From: an uncultured Candidatus Rokubacteria bacterium
GTDB lineage: Bacteria > Methylomirabilota > Methylomirabilia > Rokubacteriales > CSP1-6
NCBI GenBank assembly: GCA_963789955.1
Contig: CAWBMV010000001.1
Coordinates: forward strand, 288,001 to 352,000
Direction: 5' to 3'
DNA length: 64,000 nucleotides
The stretch's first letter is position 1. Each line of letters begins with the position of its first letter. Positions 29,808-63,640 of the stretch are shown in pieces. The notes under the pieces were generated by a model. That model saw only the letters and a program-made list of their open reading frames with translations, made no database searches and was not told the DNA's origin. The position numbers were made by a program, and so were the translations under genes.

Positions 29808-29979
29808 ATCGGGGCGGCACCGGGGCAGGGGTAGTGAAGGGGGTCCTGGGACCACGCGGCGCGCGTGCGCTGCTCCTGGGGTGGCTGGGCTCCATCTGGG
29901 CGCGCCTCGTCCGCGGCTCGCCTGGATGGAACGGGTCCCAGGACCCCCCTCACTACCCCTGCCCCGGCGCCGCCCCGAT
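29808..29979. repeat. Long-stem hairpin element, family 1 copy A
   Basis: 44-bp arms (29808-29851 and 29936-29979, 2 mismatches) around an 84-bp core homologous to the reverse complement of 36201-36282. Confidence 0.85.
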
Positions 29980-30222
29980 GACGTCGGCTCGCTGCGAGGG
30001 AGGGTTGCGACGATTCCCTGCGCAGCGGATTGGTCGAAGCGCGAATTTTCGGTGCGAGCCTAGGACGTCGTGGCAGGCATCGCGACGTCGTGCGCGGGCG
30101 GTCGTGTTGGGCGTGCCTGCATGACCGCCGTGCAGCTCGCCCTGCCCGATGGCCGTACGCCGACGCCGGCGTGAGGCGACCGCGAATGACCGCCCACGAC
30201 GCTTCCTTGGAGCGGGGTGGGG

Positions 30223-31446
30223 TTAGTTGGTTGGGGGGTGGCGGGCGGTGATGGTGGGGTCTGGTTTGGGGGCGTAGTGGAGGATGGCGATGTCGAGGGC
30301 GCGGAGCATGGCGAGGATGTAGGTGTCTTCTCGCCAGCGGGCGAAGAGGTGATCGGCGCCGAGCGCGACGATGTTGACGCCGCCGGGCCACACCGCGTCC
30401 GCCAGGAGCACGACGCCGTCGTTGGGGCCGCGCGACGTCAGGACTTGATAGCCCGGGTACACCTGATAGCCGACGCTGCCGGAGACGGGTACCGCGACGA
30501 CGTTGAGGACCATGATCGTCTCGGCCAACCGCAAGGTCTCGAGGCGCTGCCGGCTCTGTGTGGTCTCGAGCGACTCCAGCGCGTCCCAGTTCCAGCCGCT
30601 GAGCCAGAAAATTCCTCGAGCCATCCACCTCACCGGCCGGCGCAACGCCGAGTCGGCGAGCGGCGTCCCGCGCAACGCGCCAGCGATGTTGATCCACGCT
30701 GCGACGCAGCCGGCTTCCTCTGACGTCAGGCCGGCCAGGCCCATGGCCGCTTCGGCGCCCGACTTGCTGGCGCTGACCAGGACGACGGGCCCGTCGTCAC
30801 ACCCCAGCTCGCGGATCGTCCGGCTGATCACGGCCGCGTTGTCTTCGACCGAATCGCTCTCGCCCGACTCGGCCATCCGATTGCGGATGCCGAGCTCGTC
30901 GAGGAGCTGGCGCTGGCGCGCGAAATCGGCGCCGTTCTCCGGATGGCTCTTGTAGAGCCACGACGGCGCGAAGAGCACCGTGTAGGGAAAGGCCCGCGGA
31001 CGTTGCAGCGCATCGGCCGAGCGTCCCGCTCCTTCCTGTCGGAAGCGATCGAACGCGGCTTGCACCGTCCGGCTGCGGGAATCGGTCGTGAGCGCGCGCG
31101 CGAAGATCAGCGCGGCGAAATCCATCGACGTCTGGTCGGCGAGCTTCTTCAAGACGGCTTGATCCGGGAGGCGCGCCGTGTCGGCGGCTCTGCCGAGCTG
31201 CGGCTCACCCGACGCCAGATCGGCCAGATAAGAGCTTTCGGCCGCGGCCGGAGGCCAGGCATCGGCCAGACGCCGGGCCAGCAGATCGACGAGCAGCCGT
31301 CGCGCGGCGTCGGAATCGACCAGCGCCGCCAGCTCCGAGTCCGGCGAGTCGCTGTTCACCAGGTCGATCGGGCGGACGCAACCAAACGTCAAGGTCGCCG
31401 CGAGAGCGAGCGTGGCGCCGCGTACCGACCACGACGGACGAATCAA
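30223..31446 (-). CDS. Lipoprotein with alpha/beta-hydrolase-like C-terminal domain
   Basis: TFGC lipobox; VVLVSASKSG, GALRGTPLAD, PNDGVV, ADH. Confidence 0.6.
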   Translation of the reverse strand: MIRPSWSVRGATLALAATLTFGCVRPIDLVNSDSPDSELAALVDSDAARRLLVDLLARRLADAWPPAAAESSYLADLASGEPQLGRAADTARLPDQAVLKKLADQTSMDFAALIFARALTTDSRSRTVQAAFDRFRQEGAGRSADALQRPRAFPYTVLFAPSWLYKSHPENGADFARQRQLLDELGIRNRMAESGESDSVEDNAAVISRTIRELGCDDGPVVLVSASKSGAEAAMGLAGLTSEEAGCVAAWINIAGALRGTPLADSALRRPVRWMARGIFWLSGWNWDALESLETTQSRQRLETLRLAETIMVLNVVAVPVSGSVGYQVYPGYQVLTSRGPNDGVVLLADAVWPGGVNIVALGADHLFARWREDTYILAMLRALDIAILHYAPKPDPTITARHPPTN

Positions 31447-32761: not shown

Positions 32762-33512
32762 TCACTTCAAGGGTATGCGGAACTCGACGAACACGCCGCC
32801 GCTTCGGGGGATCCCGACCCGGATGTCCGACTTGATCCCGAGCAGGCTTTCCGCCATGTAGTTCAGCGCGCCGATCGGATCGGTCGCGATCAGGCCGACG
32901 TGGTCGTACCACTTGAGCTCGGGCTTGCGTCTGATCCAGTTTCTGAATGGCTCGAAGACGAAGCCGCCGAGCAGAGAGCCCCCGACGGGCGTGACGATCA
33001 GATCCTGGAAGGAGGGCCGTTCGAAGATCGCCTCGATCCCGAACTCGTAGATCGCCGAGGCGACGGCCGAGTACAGGAACGAGTCGATGCGGTCGAAGCC
33101 ACGCTCACGCGCGCGAGTGTAGTAGGTGGCGCCAAAGTACGAATGCCCGATGTAGTTCACGGGCCAGCTGTCGTCATCCCAGTGAGGGCTTGAAGCGTTC
33201 TCCCACCATTTCTCGAAGCTGATCTCCTTGTTCTGATGGGACCAGTTCGAGACGCTCGCCGGGACGACGATAGAGGATCGCGGCGCCGACGACCTGGTAG
33301 CCGATGATGAACCCGGTGTCGCGCAAGAGTCCCAACCAGTCGCGAGGCTGCTCCGAGTCGTCGGGCAGGAGGTGAAACTTCACGGGCGCATTCTCGGTCG
33401 TCACGCGAACCCACCATTCGGTCGCGTCGGGATCTTCCTCGGCGAACGCCGCCGGCACCGCCGCGAGCGAAAGGGATGCTGCCACGAGTAGAGCGACGAG
33501 GGAACGCAACAC
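32762..33512 (-). CDS. DUF3943-like secreted protein (frameshifts about 33160-33270)
   Basis: Signal peptide; WDDDSWPVNYIGHSYFGATYY, YEFGIEAIFERPSFQDLIVTPVGG. Confidence 0.7.
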
Positions 33513-33603
33513 CGGATGCGTACCATGCCGGGCGCGAGTCGGCTCCGTCCATCGGACCTTGGTCCATGCCGACCCGGACGGACGAGACGCGCGCGATATG
33601 GCG

Positions 33604-36056
33604 CTAGACGCGAAGCCGTGCGCCCGCGGGATCGTAGAGCACGTCCGGCGCGACCTCGGCGGCGAAGCGCGCGCCGAAGGCTTCCACCTCGAGCGGTGTG
33701 CCGGTCGCCGAGAGCGCCGTTGGTAAATACACGAAACCGATGTGCTTCGCGACCGTGTAGCCCCAGCCCACGCTGCGCAGCCGTCCCGCCACACGGCCAC
33801 CGGCGTACACCGCCTCGCCACCGTAGAGGTCCGACATGGTCGGGCATCGCCGCCGTCAGTGTGATCGTGCAGAGCTTCCGCGTGAGTCCCTCGGCCTTGA
33901 TCCGGCTCAGCGCCTCGCGGCCGACGAAGTCTCCCTTCTGCAGGCGCACGCAGAAGCCGAGCCCGGCTTCGTAGGGGTTCTCGGCCGGCGTGAGATCGCT
34001 GCTCCAGTAGCGGTAGCCCTTTTCGAGCCGCAAGGAGTCGACGGCCTTGTACCCGACGGGCTCGATGGCAAAGGGCCGGCCGGCCGCGAGCAGCGCGTCC
34101 CAGACCGCGACGGCATGGCGGTTCTCGACGTAGAGCTCCCAGCCGAGCTCGCCGACGTAGGTCACACGCTGGGCGCCGACCGCGGCGCCGGCGATCTCGA
34201 TCGGTCGCGCCGACATATAAGGAAGGGCCGCGTTCGACACGTCGCTCGCGGTGACGGCCTGGAGCACGCGACGCGCGTCGGGGCCCCAGAGGCCGATGCA
34301 CGCGAACGCGTCCGTCACGTCGCGCACCTGCACGCTGTCGTCGGACGGCAGGTGCATCAGGATCCACCCGAGGTCGCTCGCGACGAAGTTGCTGCCGGTC
34401 GTCACCCGGAAGCGATCCGGCGCCCAGCGCGTGACGGTCAGGTCACTCTCGATTCCGCCGCGCGGGTTGAGGAACTGCGTGTAGATCACGCTGCCGACCG
34501 GGCGATCGACGTCGTTGTCGGCGAGCCGCTGCAGCAGCGCCAGCGCGCCCGGGCCGCTCACGTCGAGCTTGCCGAACGAGGTGAAGTCGAAGAGGCCGAC
34601 CCGCTCGCGGACGGCCCGGTGCTCGGCGCCGACGCGGTCGAAGAACGCCGCGCGCGCCCAGCCCCAGCGGCGCTGATCGGTGCCCGCGCGGCGACCGGGT
34701 GTGCCCGGCATGAAATAGTTGGCGCGCTCCCAGCCGTTCTTCTCGCCGAACACCGCGCCGGCTTCGCCGAGCCGCGCGTCGAGCGGGCTCAGGCGGCGCG
34801 CGCGGGCCCACTCGTTCTCGTCGTGGGGATAGCGGAGCATGTAGTAGTACTTGTACGATTCGCGCGCGCGCTCGGCGGCGTACGCGCGATCCTCGTACAC
34901 CGGCCCGAAGCGTCGGACGTTCAGCTCCGTCACGTCGTGCGGCGGCTCGCCGTCGACGAGCCAGTCGGCCACGATGTGGCCGATCGCGCCGCCGGCGCCG
35001 AAGCCGGTGTGCGACAGACCCGCCGCGACCCAGAACCCGGGGACGCCGGGCACCGGACCGAGCAAGGGACGGCTGTCGGGGGTGATACCTTCGGGGCCGT
35101 TCACCAGGTGCGCCAGCTCGGCCTTTGACAAGATCGGCACGCGCCGGATCGCGCCCTCGAGGATCTCGTTGAACAGCTCCCAGTCGGACGGCAGGAGCTG
35201 CTGCGTGAAGTCCCAGGGCACGCCGCCGACCGACCACGCGACCGGGCTACGCTCGAAGCCGCCGATGAGAAATCCGCCGACCTCCTCACGCATGTAGACG
35301 AGGTTCTCCGGGTCGCGCAGGCACGGCGTCGAGCGGGGGAGCTGGTGGTCCGGGATCGGCTTCGTCGCCAGATGCTGATGGACCAGCGGCGTGATCGGCA
35401 GACTGACGCCGACCATCGCGGCGATCTGCGACGCCCACATCCCGCCCGCATTGATGACGATCTCCGTGTGGATCGCGCCGTGGTCCGTCTCGACGGCCGC
35501 GACGGCGCCCCGGCGATGTCCGCCGGATCCCGGTGACGCGCACGCCGGTGTTGAGCTCGACGCCCAGGCGGCGTGCCTGCGCGGCCAGCTCCATCGTCGC
35601 GCCGCTCGGATCGAGCCAGCCATCGCCCGGCAAGTACATCGCGCCGTGGAGGCTCTCGGCGGACATCAACGGGAAGATGCGAAGTGATTCGGCCGGCGAG
35701 ATGGTGTCGACGTCGAGCCCGATCGCGCGGGCCATGCCGACCTGCCGCTGGAGGAATCGAAGCTGATCGCCGCTCGAGGCGACGCGAAGGCTCCCGACCT
35801 CGTGCCAGTGCTCCGCCGATCCGGGCTCCGCCTGCAGCCGCCGATAGAGCTCGATGCTGTACTTCCGCATCCGCATGAGCGTCGGCGACGTATGAAAGTG
35901 CGTCACCATCCCCGCGGCATGCCACGTCGACCCGCTCGTCAACTCCCCCTTGTCGACGAGCACGACATCCGTCCACCCCTTCCGCGCCAGATGATACGCA
36001 ACACTACACCCCGCAATCCCCCCACCAACAATCACCACCCGCGCCCTCTCCCTCAT
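33604..36056 (-). CDS. GcvT-family FAD-dependent dimethylglycine/sarcosine dehydrogenase-like protein (frameshifts near 35520 and 33840)
   Basis: VIVGGGIAG, TSGSTWHAAG, NGPEGITPD, GWERANYF, DFTSFGK, SLRLEKGYR, YDPAGARL. Confidence 0.9.
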
Positions 36057-36158
36057 AAGCCGCGCCACCATCCCATCCGCTCCACCCGCGGTCTCATGCG
36101 CACGACCGGGGGCGCGTGCTCGGCGTGGATCACGGCAACATTGGCCGACACGGGATGT

Positions 36159-36323
36159 CGGGGTGCGGCGGGCGAGTGGGCGTGGGAGGGGTCGACCGGA
36201 CCCGTTCCCTCCAGGCGACGTCGGAAGTCGCGTGCCGAGATGGAGCCCAGCCGCCGCGGAGCAGCGCACGCGTGCCGCGTGGTCCGGCGACCCCTCCCAC
36301 GCCCGCTCGCCCGCCGCACCCCG
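36159..36323. repeat. Long-stem hairpin element, family 1 copy B (opposite orientation to A)
   Basis: About 41-bp arms (36159-36200 and 36283-36323; 1 bulge, 1 mismatch) around an 82-bp core homologous to copy A. Confidence 0.85.
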
Positions 36324-36354
36324 GCGCCCAGCGTCGAAGCGGAGGTTGTGGGCA

Positions 36355-51591: not shown

Positions 51592-52300
51592 CAAGCCGGC
51601 TCCCGGATGGCCGCGATGAAGTCGGTGGAGCGCGACACCGCGCCGAAGACGCCGCCTTGCATCGTGACCATCTTGATCGCGGCCTGGTAGTTGCCGTAGT
51701 CGGTCGCGCCCGTGCAGTCCTCGAGCAGCAGACACTCGAAGCCGCGGTCGTTGCCTTCGCGCATCGTCGTGTGGACGCAGACGTCGGTCGTGATCCCGGT
51801 GAGCACCAGGTTCTGGATGCCGCGCGTTCTCAGGATCAGCTCGAGGTCGGTCGCGCAGAACGAGCCCTTGCCGGGCTTGTCGATCACGGTCTCGCCGGGC
51901 TTCGGCGCCAGCTCGGGCACGATCTCCCACCCGGGCTCGCCGCGCACGAGAATGCGCCCGCACGGCCCGGGATCGCCGATGCCGGCGCCGATGCGCCGCG
52001 AGCGCCAGCGCTTGTTCGCCGGCAGATCGGACAGATCCGGCCGATGTCCCTCGCGCGTGTGGATCACGTGAAACCCGCCGGCCCGCGCCGCCGTCAGGAC
52101 CGCCCGGATCGGCTCGATCGGCGCGCGCGTGAGCGACAGATCGTAGCCCATGCGATCGACGTACCCGCCGATCCCGCAGAAGTCCGTCTGCATGTCGATC
52201 ACGACCACCGCCGTGTTCTCCGCCCGCAGATCCCCGTTATACGGCCACGGATACGGCTCCGCCTTCACATACCGCTCGGTCCCCGCGAGCCGTTAGTCAT
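51591..52300 (-). CDS. biuH: Biuret hydrolase (probable start ATG 52300, 1-nt shift before [11 protein letters not shown])
   Basis: [64 protein letters not shown] closely match Rhizobium BiuH as I recall it. Confidence 0.88.
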
Positions 52301-52356
52301 GCGTCCTCCGTTCTAGGCAAGAAACCGAGCATGAACGGAATCGCCAGCCCGGGCCG

Positions 52357-52383
52357 GGCCCTGCGACAGGCCCCGCCCGCCTC
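52357..52383. repeat. 27-bp fragment of hairpin element family 2
   Basis: ggccctgcgacaggccccgcccgcctc identical to 63591-63617. Confidence 0.7.
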
Positions 52384-52432
52384 GACGCGACGATCGCTCA
52401 TGAATAGGCCGGGCCGGCGACTCACGCTCATG

Positions 52433-62423: not shown

Positions 62424-63360
62424 TCAGGCCGCTCCGACGTGGGCGGCCATCCGGTCGCGCATCGCCGCATCCGGGAGCCTGCCGGTGGCGGCCTTGAGAT
62501 TGTCGACCATGTGCTGCGGCCGGCTCGTGCCCGGGATCGCGCAGGTCACCGCCGGGTTCGCCAGGATCCACTTCAGGAAAAACTGCGCCCAGCTGTCGCA
62601 GTCGAACTCGGCCGCCCACGGCGGCACCGCCTGGGCGCGCACGCGCTGGAAGAGTCCGCCCTCGGCGAACGGCCGGTTGGCGAGCACGGCGACGCCGCGG
62701 TCGCGGGCCAGGGGCAGGATGCGGCGCTCGGCTTCACGCTCGCCGAGGGAGTAGTTGACCTGGACGAAGTCGAGCGTCTCGGCACGCAGCACGCGCTCCA
62801 GCTCGTCGTAGGCGCTCGACGTGTAGTGCGTGACCCCGAGATAGCGAATGCGGCCGGCCGCCTTCCACTCTCGCAGGGTGCGAAGATGCGTCCGCCAGTC
62901 GAGGAGGTTGTGGATCTGGATCAGATCGAGTCGCTGGGCGCGCAGCCGCTTGAGCGACTGCTCCATCTGCGCCACGCCGGCCTCTCGCCCGCTCGTCCAC
63001 ACCTTCGTGGCCAGGAACAGCTTGTCGGTGATCGCGAGATCCGCGGCGAGATCGCCCACGACCGACTCGGCCGTGCCATACATCGGCGACGAGTCGACGA
63101 CACGTCCGCCCAGCTCGAGCAGACTCTTCAGCACGTCCTTGAGCGGCGCCCGCTCGGATGGCGAGCCTGCCGACGTCGAACACGCGCCACGTGCCGAGTC
63201 CGACCACCGGGATCATCTCGCCGCTGACGGGAATCGGCCGACTCAGCACCGGCGAGGCCGCACCACCGCCGCCCGGACGCACCGCCAGCCCCGCCGCCAT
63301 CAATCCAAGCACCACCCGCCGCGAGAGCCGCCCCGATCGATCGTCATGCCCTCTCCTCAT
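62424..63360 (-). CDS. Aldo/keto reductase with Tat-like signal (frameshift near 63165, start uncertain)
   Basis: [35 protein letters not shown]. Confidence 0.88.
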
Positions 63361-63445
63361 ACCACGGACATACCACGACCACCGACCGAGTGCCTACGCG
63401 ACCCAACCGAGCGAGTGTCTACGCCGAACTGACGAGCGGTAACGA

Positions 63446-63620
63446 CGTGACGAGGGCGGGGCGAGAGCCGGGCGGGTGGCGCAGGGCGCGGCTCCGGCGA
63501 GCCCGGCGGAGTGGGCCCCCCTCGTCCCGCCCGCAGCTCGAAGAGCTGCGAATCGGGCGAGCGGGTGACGCAGCCGGGCTGGCCGGAGCCGGCCCTGCGA
63601 CAGGCCCCGCCCGCCTCACG
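63446..63620. repeat. Nested hairpin element, family 2
   Basis: Arms 63480-63507 and 63573-63599; outer arms 63446-63462 and 63604-63620; inner cgcagctc-GAA-gagctgcg. Confidence 0.7.
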
Positions 63621-63640
63621 CGGCCACCACGCCAGGAGAG

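Follow-up and report, generated by a model that had tools for sequence, protein, structure and literature searches.

The window analyzed here, a stretch of 64,000 nucleotides (nt) from the source genome assembly of a soil lineage of Rokubacteria (G000:C1:288001-352000, where G000 denotes that assembly), contains structured repeats of two unrelated families, next to which the ends of protein-coding genes are depleted in cytosine on one strand. Genes were called by our own codon-model finder rather than by curated annotation, and the expected numbers of codons ending in C (C3) or G (G3) were derived from the codon usage of G000. The C-poor zones are called halos below. The main features are as follows.

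36146..36336, minus strand: family-1 element, copy B (5' arm 36288-36336, conserved core 36199-36284, 3' arm 36146-36194).
33401..36056, minus strand: GcvT/DAO-family oxidoreductase gene (Pfam DAO, FAO_M, and GCV_T), split by indels in the assembly.
35876..36056, minus strand: halo of copy B, covering GcvT codons 1-60 and most pronounced at 35967-36056.
29808..29979, plus strand: family-1 element, copy A (arms 29808-29853 and 29934-29979, core 29850-29938).
30223..30360, plus (core) strand C-poor: halo of copy A, visible as loss of G3 at the 3' end of a minus-strand gene.
63461..63621, minus strand, which is also its halo strand: family-2 element, with a core of ~70 nt (~63506-63576) unrelated to family 1 and the same arm architecture.
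63261..63360, minus strand: first 33 codons of the adjoining gene, in which the halo of the family-2 element lies.

An earlier note on this window had claimed that the first 30 codons of the GcvT gene all end in G or T, and the counts agree: at 35967-36056 on the minus strand, none of 24 C-capable codons ends in C, with 14.9 expected (P about 1e-11.7). The longest such run elsewhere is 20 codons among 5,915 other called genes, a set that does not include the GcvT N-terminal piece. In codons 31-60, C3 is 8/25 (13.8 expected). The absence of synonymous G endings from the last ~45 codons of the minus-strand gene at 30223-30360 was likewise confirmed (G3 0/28 G-capable codons, 14.1 expected), as was the skew beside the family-2 element near 63260-63420 (C3 4/28, 15.2 expected). 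For family 1, the G/T-rich, that is, C-poor, strand is indeed the one carrying the core. The split of the GcvT gene is probably an assembly indel, since the base at 35514 is missing from a contig of a separate run, X3, which differs from window positions 34188-36012 by 33 of 1,824 nt and covers just 46 nt of the zone (runs X1-X3 and X15 are contigs of relatives, with 17-34% of words shared). Further one-base indels differ close to this position, and the assembly carries long-read indel errors.

The family-1 element is ~170 bp long and consists of a conserved asymmetric core of ~88 nt between inverted arms of ~36-56 nt; G000 contains 36 copies. The arms vary in sequence from copy to copy with their complementarity kept, the 5' arm being G-rich and the 3' arm C-rich on either strand. 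Four or more GGG runs occur in 93 of 153 5' arms, and those arms are paired in the hairpin. Core positions 29:56 and 30:55 covary with compensatory changes, so that, judging from the sequences, the fold of the core is probably under selection. Folded as DNA, copy B reaches ~-87 kcal/mol on either strand (z about -8.5 and -9). Related matches were found in all 16 other genomes of the genus, in 20 of 24 genomes of the family, and, weakly, in four of 16 others. The exact core pattern occurs in at least 112 stretches; among the 80 listed, 70 have Rokubacteria or Methylomirabilota in their title, seven come from one Binatia-titled record, and three are "uncultured". No viral contig matched the core pattern. 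Rfam gave no match at the gathering score in the window and none at E<=10 for copy B; copy A had only generic long-hairpin matches far below the cut-off.

The C-poor zone lies 3' of the element on the core strand. Over the 36 copies, core-strand C, ~0.345 in the background, drops to 0.22 between 150 and 200 nt past the core and has recovered by ~450 nt, the upstream side being flat; synonymous C is at ~0.6 of expectation, with a peak effect at 75-175 nt past the arm, and the deficit is gone by ~350 nt. When matches from G000 and loci from other genomes are pooled and aligned at the arm end (153 of 181 matches, those with full core and arms), the skew starts at +0.01 over the first 25 nt, reaches +0.20 at 75-150 nt, and is about zero past 275 nt. 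Copy by copy, 21 of the 23 scorable downstream flanks are negative and 17 have z<-2, the other 13 copies having been dropped because they stand in facing pairs or next to no called gene; upstream, 14 of 34 are negative and only two have z<-2. Skew on both sides, which the earlier note had described, is therefore not the rule, and the flank upstream of copy A is only mildly low (8/28, 14.5 expected, z -2.7). Gene ends without elements are at baseline: in 60-codon windows with no element within 1 kb, 5.3% of 5,608 gene starts and 4.6% of 4,476 gene ends have z<-2, and 1.1% and 0.8%, respectively, have z<-3.

The same polarity is seen in other genomes. We considered 60 loci, the best-scoring matches among ~150 listed (226 further unlisted), mostly from assemblies of 140-820 contigs; 58 have one element and 56 are scorable, with positive skew downstream in 49 and upstream in 22. 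After the pooled loci were collapsed into flank groups, which remain related to one another, the downstream skew exceeded the upstream one in 69 of 81. Recurrence in fragmented assemblies of other genomes speaks against an effect of assembly or polishing, and the element-anchored compositional scar is real and lineage-wide. A scan of the whole of G000 gave 310 C-poor windows, of which 14 lie downstream of family 1 and many of those listed are low-GC islands. Two strongly C-poor gene starts in G000 (C4:14370 and C3:65017) follow a common TTGAC-containing promoter-like leader with no known element.

The skew goes with the strand of the element rather than with that of the gene: 100-250 nt downstream, fourfold C3 is 0.07-0.26 in same-strand genes (background 0.48), and fourfold G3 is 0.17-0.27 in opposite-strand genes (background 0.43). 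Among the 102 of 153 elements scorable by gene arrangement (51 were unscorable), the observed/expected ratio of core-strand C is 0.74 where both genes are sense (40 loci), 0.70 in convergent (26), 0.78 in divergent (7), and 0.75 in wholly antisense (29) arrangements. Host transcription was rejected as the cause, the effect being equal in all four. The ratio is 0.51 for the leading-like strand (11 copies) and 0.63 for the lagging-like strand (15 copies; p 0.08), with the replichore strand inferred from a weak keto skew (~0.01) that is consistent on nine contigs. A gap confined to the lagging strand was not supported, as both orientations are affected, the replichore call itself resting on that skew of ~0.01. 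The skew of the zone is ~20 times the regional one (0.2 vs. about 0.01).

Two other repeat families show a similar polarity. The 11 copies of family 2 have a matching one-sided zone (observed/expected C 0.68, z -8.6), and the 13 copies of family 4 a weaker one (0.85, z -4.4). Family 4 (C12:279686 and 12 more in G000) has short inverted ends and a long internal hairpin.

Orthologues of the flanking genes were compared by the state of the element. Over GcvT codons 5-40, orthologues with an element in the same orientation have C3 of 4/36, 3/36, 5/35, 8/36, 11/36, and 16/36, the ortholog with an inverted element (L007) has 19/36, and those with an element remnant, with arms only, and without an element have 17/36, 18/36, and 21/36, respectively. 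The outgroups have 20-23/36 among the four of eight rows listed, and beyond codon 100 C3 is 0.49-0.57 in all GcvT orthologues. For the gene ending at 30223, G3 is 0/28 and 2/32 with the element, and seven distant element-free orthologues have z from -2.6 to +0.4. For the family-2 neighbor gene (12 of 20 loci examined), C3 is 5/35 twice with the element, and eight element-free orthologues are mildly C-poor (z -1.2 to -2.8). A comparison of flanks in both roles would need more material, as only five of 62 flank groups occur in both.

The substitution spectrum was measured at 127 loci, on the core strand from 40 to 200 nt beyond the arm. At fourfold sites, C is at 0.60-0.67 of expectation and T is raised 1.3-1.9-fold; at twofold sites, C is at 0.80 and T is raised 2.2-2.5-fold. 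G is at 1.3-1.4 times expectation, and A is at 0.45 at twofold sites of antisense genes. The loss of C depends little on the neighboring base (fourfold C ratio 0.55-0.66 across all four 3' neighbors); cleavage-site avoidance and slippage-type misinsertion were rejected as explanations, since no matching sequence context was found and the loss is not weaker before C. First codon positions also shift in the zone (TTG 0.22 vs. 0.10, AGG 0.15 vs. 0.08), and amino-acid usage moves towards Gly, Val, Trp, and Cys in sense genes and towards Pro, Thr, Leu, and Ile in antisense genes, to which gene-family composition may contribute. When five orthologues that have no element, an inverted one, or a remnant are compared with the window gene over GcvT codons 5-40, the sums are 41 C>T differences vs. 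none in reverse and 39 C>G vs. five, and substitutions beyond codon 100 are symmetric; the weakest GcvT halo, that of L006, consists of C>T alone (30 vs. 2). A paired comparison in which the G000 site lacks the element is weak (C>G 91 vs. 61), the G000 sites concerned being already G-rich. C/G transversions are the commonest synonymous difference throughout the genus, even at 96% identity (273/751), which makes G a natural sink under GC pressure.

We suggest, as an explanation slightly likelier to be right than wrong, that the element repeatedly exposes its own core strand 3' of the last arm and that deamination-type change accumulates there; the single-strandedness, the chemistry, and the trigger are what we infer. 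The element would act as a polar site that leaves the core strand single-stranded over ~200-350 nt 3' of its last arm, either because a nick is followed by 5'->3' displacement of the strand or because an element-initiated transcript forms an R-loop. The arms would pair with each other, so that the C-rich 3' arm is shielded and survives. In the unpaired flank, hydrolytic deamination of C to U would give C>T, excision of the uracil and bypass of the abasic site would give C>G and C>A, and conversion of A to hypoxanthine would give A>G, the known outcome of adenine deamination. The strong preference of this genome for codons ending in G or C would purge many of the T and A, so that G would build up. 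The scar would outlive the element for some time and fade later. The confinement to one side and one strand, with 3' polarity, disfavors symmetric causes such as a double-strand break or the cruciform extrusion proposed in the earlier note, and the amino-to-keto shift of the core strand matches deamination of that strand when exposed. Cytosine deamination occurs mainly in single-stranded DNA, according to the accessible part of one source (PMC10030826).

A number of observations weigh against exposure and deamination of the core strand. The first ~25 nt past the arm have no skew, and in one family-2 copy the zone is on the opposite side. The nearest relative, L002, has a flipped core and keeps a strong GcvT halo (C3 6/36), which we read as a recent flip, and L004, with a family-2 core in what by eye is the expected orientation, has none (C3 22/36). 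At the gene ending at 30223, the half-element L221 has a strong halo (G3 0/32), as has L220, with the same synteny and no detectable element (6/32); at the family-2 neighbor gene, the close relatives L248 and L249, also without a detectable element, have strong halos too (C3 2/34 and 4/31). The expectation that orthologues without the element lack the skew is borne out by the distant ones and not by several close ones with a lost or flipped element. There is no reduction of A at fourfold sites, nor at the twofold sites of same-strand genes, and the absolute gain of G exceeds that of T, so that plain C>T would be insufficient without an added selection step. The direction of change comes from pairwise asymmetry rather than from polarized branches, and the loci are related, not independent. 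Divergence is hardly raised: 0.36 in the zone vs. 0.34 beyond it at fourfold sites, 0.27 vs. 0.18 at twofold sites, and 0.123 vs. 0.134 between duplicate contigs (146 sites). This points to a biased spectrum, not to hypermutation; of the element-directed local mutagenesis claimed in the earlier note, the strand-biased loss of C fading over a few hundred bases is supported, and a raised rate is not.

Finally, no trans factor emerged from the searches for Y1, Y2, RVT_1, and GIY-YIG proteins. The Y1 HUH transposase (TnpA-REP/RAYT; PF01797) was not found in G000 or in any of the 17 genomes of the genus searched (66-99% complete), the control search made beside it having matches in six of 14 genomes. 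Reverse transcriptase (PF00078) was not found in G000 (87% complete). The Y2 transposase PF04986 occurs in five of 17 genus genomes and not in G000, and no match to families 1-4 lies within its nine loci. The only GIY-YIG match (PF01541) in G000 is a UvrC-like N-terminus that follows a UvrB-like end, and a search of G000 alone gave no Ssn-like small single-domain GIY-YIG nuclease. As for host enzymes, G000 encodes four matches to the UDG superfamily and four to Y-family polymerases, one of which, divergent, lies ~2 kb before a second DnaE (C22:141815-144940), an arrangement that we take to resemble an imuB-dnaE2 cassette. With these glycosylases, polymerases, and the second DnaE, either route of the mechanism is possible and neither is proven.

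Among the alternatives, the one that survives best, though we hold it to be unlikely, is an RRS-like stall of the polymerase at a structure of the anti-core strand, on the leading or lagging template, with an anti-core gap and either damage to G or error-prone filling by Y-family polymerases or DnaE2. It places the zone in the same position and is likewise independent of fork direction; the G runs of the 5' arms, the prominence of C>G, and the encoded translesion polymerases agree with it, and RRS elements are described, in the accessible text, as triggers of one-sided gaps (PMC11194060, PMC13308219). However, the G-rich arms are symmetric on both strands, so that the upstream side should be marked as well, and it is at baseline. 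Further, the C>T and A>G changes of the core strand form the amino-to-keto pattern to be expected if that strand itself is the exposed one, C is lost no less before C, a context closed to slippage-type misinsertion, and the zone extends over 200-350 nt as against 1.2-2.5 kb for RRS.

Reverse causation, in which the elements would preferentially insert or persist 5' of sequence already G/T-rich on that strand, seems improbable to us. The halos of L220, L248, and L249 and the low share of family-1 flanks among the C-poor windows of G000 speak for it; the close-relative cases would fit a scar that outlasts the element, and they also keep this alternative alive. Against it, comparably C-poor gene starts and ends are rare without elements, as the controls show, the GcvT codons concerned end in C in element-free relatives, and several element-free halos retain arm remnants of a deleted copy (C26 vs. 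C22, L221, and C4 vs. C3).

We give similarly little credence to selection on the folding of RNA or single-stranded DNA, by which a C-poor flank would be favored since C-rich sequence would compete for the G-rich arm. The structure does appear to be under selection, with arms complementary despite sequence turnover and covarying core pairs, and the barely raised divergence agrees with this explanation. But the effect is equal where host transcription is wholly antisense to the core strand, it spans 50-100 codons with opposite amino-acid shifts in sense and antisense genes, and it is one-sided though the arms are symmetric. A long-read assembly artifact or ordinary gene-start composition, suggested by the indel errors in the window and by the C-poor N-terminal regions of orthologues of the gene at 62737, is very unlikely, as reading frames and protein motifs are intact, the control gene starts and ends do not depart from baseline, and other genomes have the skew too, which is also present at gene 3' ends on the opposite strand.

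Of the known systems, the zone works most like RRS-type programmed exposure, here read as a deamination footprint, and the repeats fall outside RRS, REPIN/RAYT, IS91, Ssn, and the diversity-generating retroelements. The latter are characterized by a reverse transcriptase, a template/variable repeat pair, and adenine-specific change, whereas in family 1 the base lost is mainly C and G000 yielded no PF00078 match. IS91-type rolling-circle elements are linked to a Y2 transposase or share its ends, and no such link was found for families 1-4. REPINs have conserved arms and a variable center, and family 1 is the reverse; REP sequences carry a short conserved palindrome and, at the 5' foot of it, a GTAG-type guide, whereas the arms of family 1 are variable and preceded by no conserved tetranucleotide. 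The REP-RAYT system also needs the Y1 transposase, which was not found in the 17 genus genomes. According to the accessible text on REP, BIME, and REPIN sequences, they resemble family 1 as multi-copy extragenic inverted repeats located after genes, some in facing pairs, and the strand-specific processing of single-stranded DNA near the hairpin by TnpA(REP)/RAYT can be likened to the family-1 zone; TnpA(REP) cleaves at CT or CA, to which the family-1 loss of C is not confined (PMC8266576).

The RRS of Escherichia coli is, like family 1, a conserved GC-rich structured intergenic repeat (~200 bp), and, as far as the accessible text of the reports goes, DNA is single-stranded on one side and one strand of it, fading with distance, much as in the family-1 zone; that text describes no mutational footprint (PMC10287960, PMC11194060, PMC13308219). 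The RRS occurs there as two fixed copies tied to the lagging strand, with gaps of 1.2-2.5 kb, whereas family 1 has dozens of mobile, flippable copies in either orientation; the RRS gap, by our reading of the published coordinates, is 5' of the element on the exposed strand, and the family-1 zone is 3' on the C-poor strand. RRS copies flank the terminus in a fixed lagging-template orientation, and the family-1 copies on contigs with a consistent skew are divided 14 vs. 11 between the two inferred orientations. The family-1 profile had no match at E<=10 at either E. coli RRS locus, whose flanks have no clear compositional signal.

Deamination at replication forks or transcription bubbles and kataegis share the one-strand amino-to-keto shift (C and A down, G and T up), as given in the accessible part of PMC10030826. 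Unlike fork or bubble asymmetry, the family-1 zone is local (200-350 nt), anchored to a repeat, ~20 times stronger than the regional skew, and independent of transcription and inferred fork direction, and no context of a targeting deaminase was seen in it. In yeast, too, genes next to hairpin-forming repeats are altered by way of single-stranded intermediates and translesion synthesis, and there the effect is described, in the text accessible, as two-sided, up to 8 kb, and following double-strand breaks, whereas the family-1 zone is one-sided, short, and strand-fixed (PMC3681665). The Ssn/NTS-SRM system, as far as described in the accessible text, resembles family 1 in its oriented hairpin repeat and, for Ssn, one-strand processing, with neighboring genes reported to be more diverse; SsnA cuts a few bases upstream of its repeat, unlike the downstream zone of family 1 (PMC11893778). 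Our literature search, which covered few subscription journals and no supplements, found no description of such a footprint or of the family-1 repeat.

These data suggest that a repeat slowly rewrites the neighboring gene via strand exposure. Strand asymmetry in bacteria is usually attributed to genome-scale replication and transcription, and here a small repeat imposes a local skew of far greater strength. More tentatively, several unrelated families of structured repeats may be polar, sequence-programmed unwinding or nicking sites, and hence local cis mutators that recode the adjacent 50-100 codons, an undescribed class that could span phyla. If so, such sites would be served by a host or mobile factor, would recode a fixed strand, amino acids included, and would leave a datable scar after loss or inversion. 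The scar could date the loss and inversion of elements, it shifts amino-acid usage at protein ends, and it points to a machinery that spreads repeats without RAYT. The footprint also offers a purely computational screen for sequences that program single-stranded DNA, of which the RRS authors count two examples in the accessible text (PMC13308219).

The remaining features of the window are the following.

52179..52268, minus strand: start of an isochorismatase-family gene (Pfam) with a weak C3 deficit.
52349..52389, strand unassigned: arm-like fragment of 41 nt resembling a family-2 arm, without a core; a possible remnant.
30058..30063, plus strand: GCNTAG hexamer 3' of copy A.

The skew noted earlier at 52180-52290 is present in weaker form (7/24, 14.1 expected, z -3.2), and its neighbor is only the core-less fragment. 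GCNTAG occurs in 33% of family-1 downstream flanks vs. 4-9% of controls and accompanies stronger halos, and it has no fixed reading frame after the arms. It was rejected as the trigger (observed/expected C 0.98 after 507 element-free intergenic copies), and also, after the arms, as a TANNNT -10 box (T in just two of 48). Several element-free intergenic GCNTAG sites of G000 are located ~17 nt after TTGAC and continue with NNT, which suggests the -10 box of this lineage.

Family-1 cores can flip between the arms (L002, L007) or be deleted with the arms left (C26 vs. C22). The copy at C6:254943-255181 has mirror C-poor zones on both sides, as expected after a core flip, and the one at C23:35478 is truncated at its 3' end by an apparent insertion-sequence end. 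Four facing pairs, with 3' ends towards each other ~300 bp apart, were found in G000 (C34:274803/275134, C34:1056991/1057302, C23:27847/28137, and C16:55486/55766). The flanks of L048 (G004:C277) match the upstream sides of two different G000 copies, which suggests rearrangement between elements. The G000 bin contains duplicate segments at 88-99% identity (70 segments, 288 kb; the pairs are C33 vs. C1, C23 vs. C34, C26 vs. C22, C21 vs. C22, and C4 vs. C3), probably from a second strain or species. Family 3 (C34:1162833, C1:876314, C34:500096, and C1:779751) has the same arm architecture, GTAG inside the core, and flanks that are C-rich on one side; its profile recovered one copy of the five hairpin entries. 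Finally, two IS91-family transposase genes of another genome, G006 (L206 and L211), are strongly C3-rich (158 C vs. 93 G and 206 vs. 91), their antisense strand being C-poor, and two others are not; this is possibly the same chemistry on a displaced strand.

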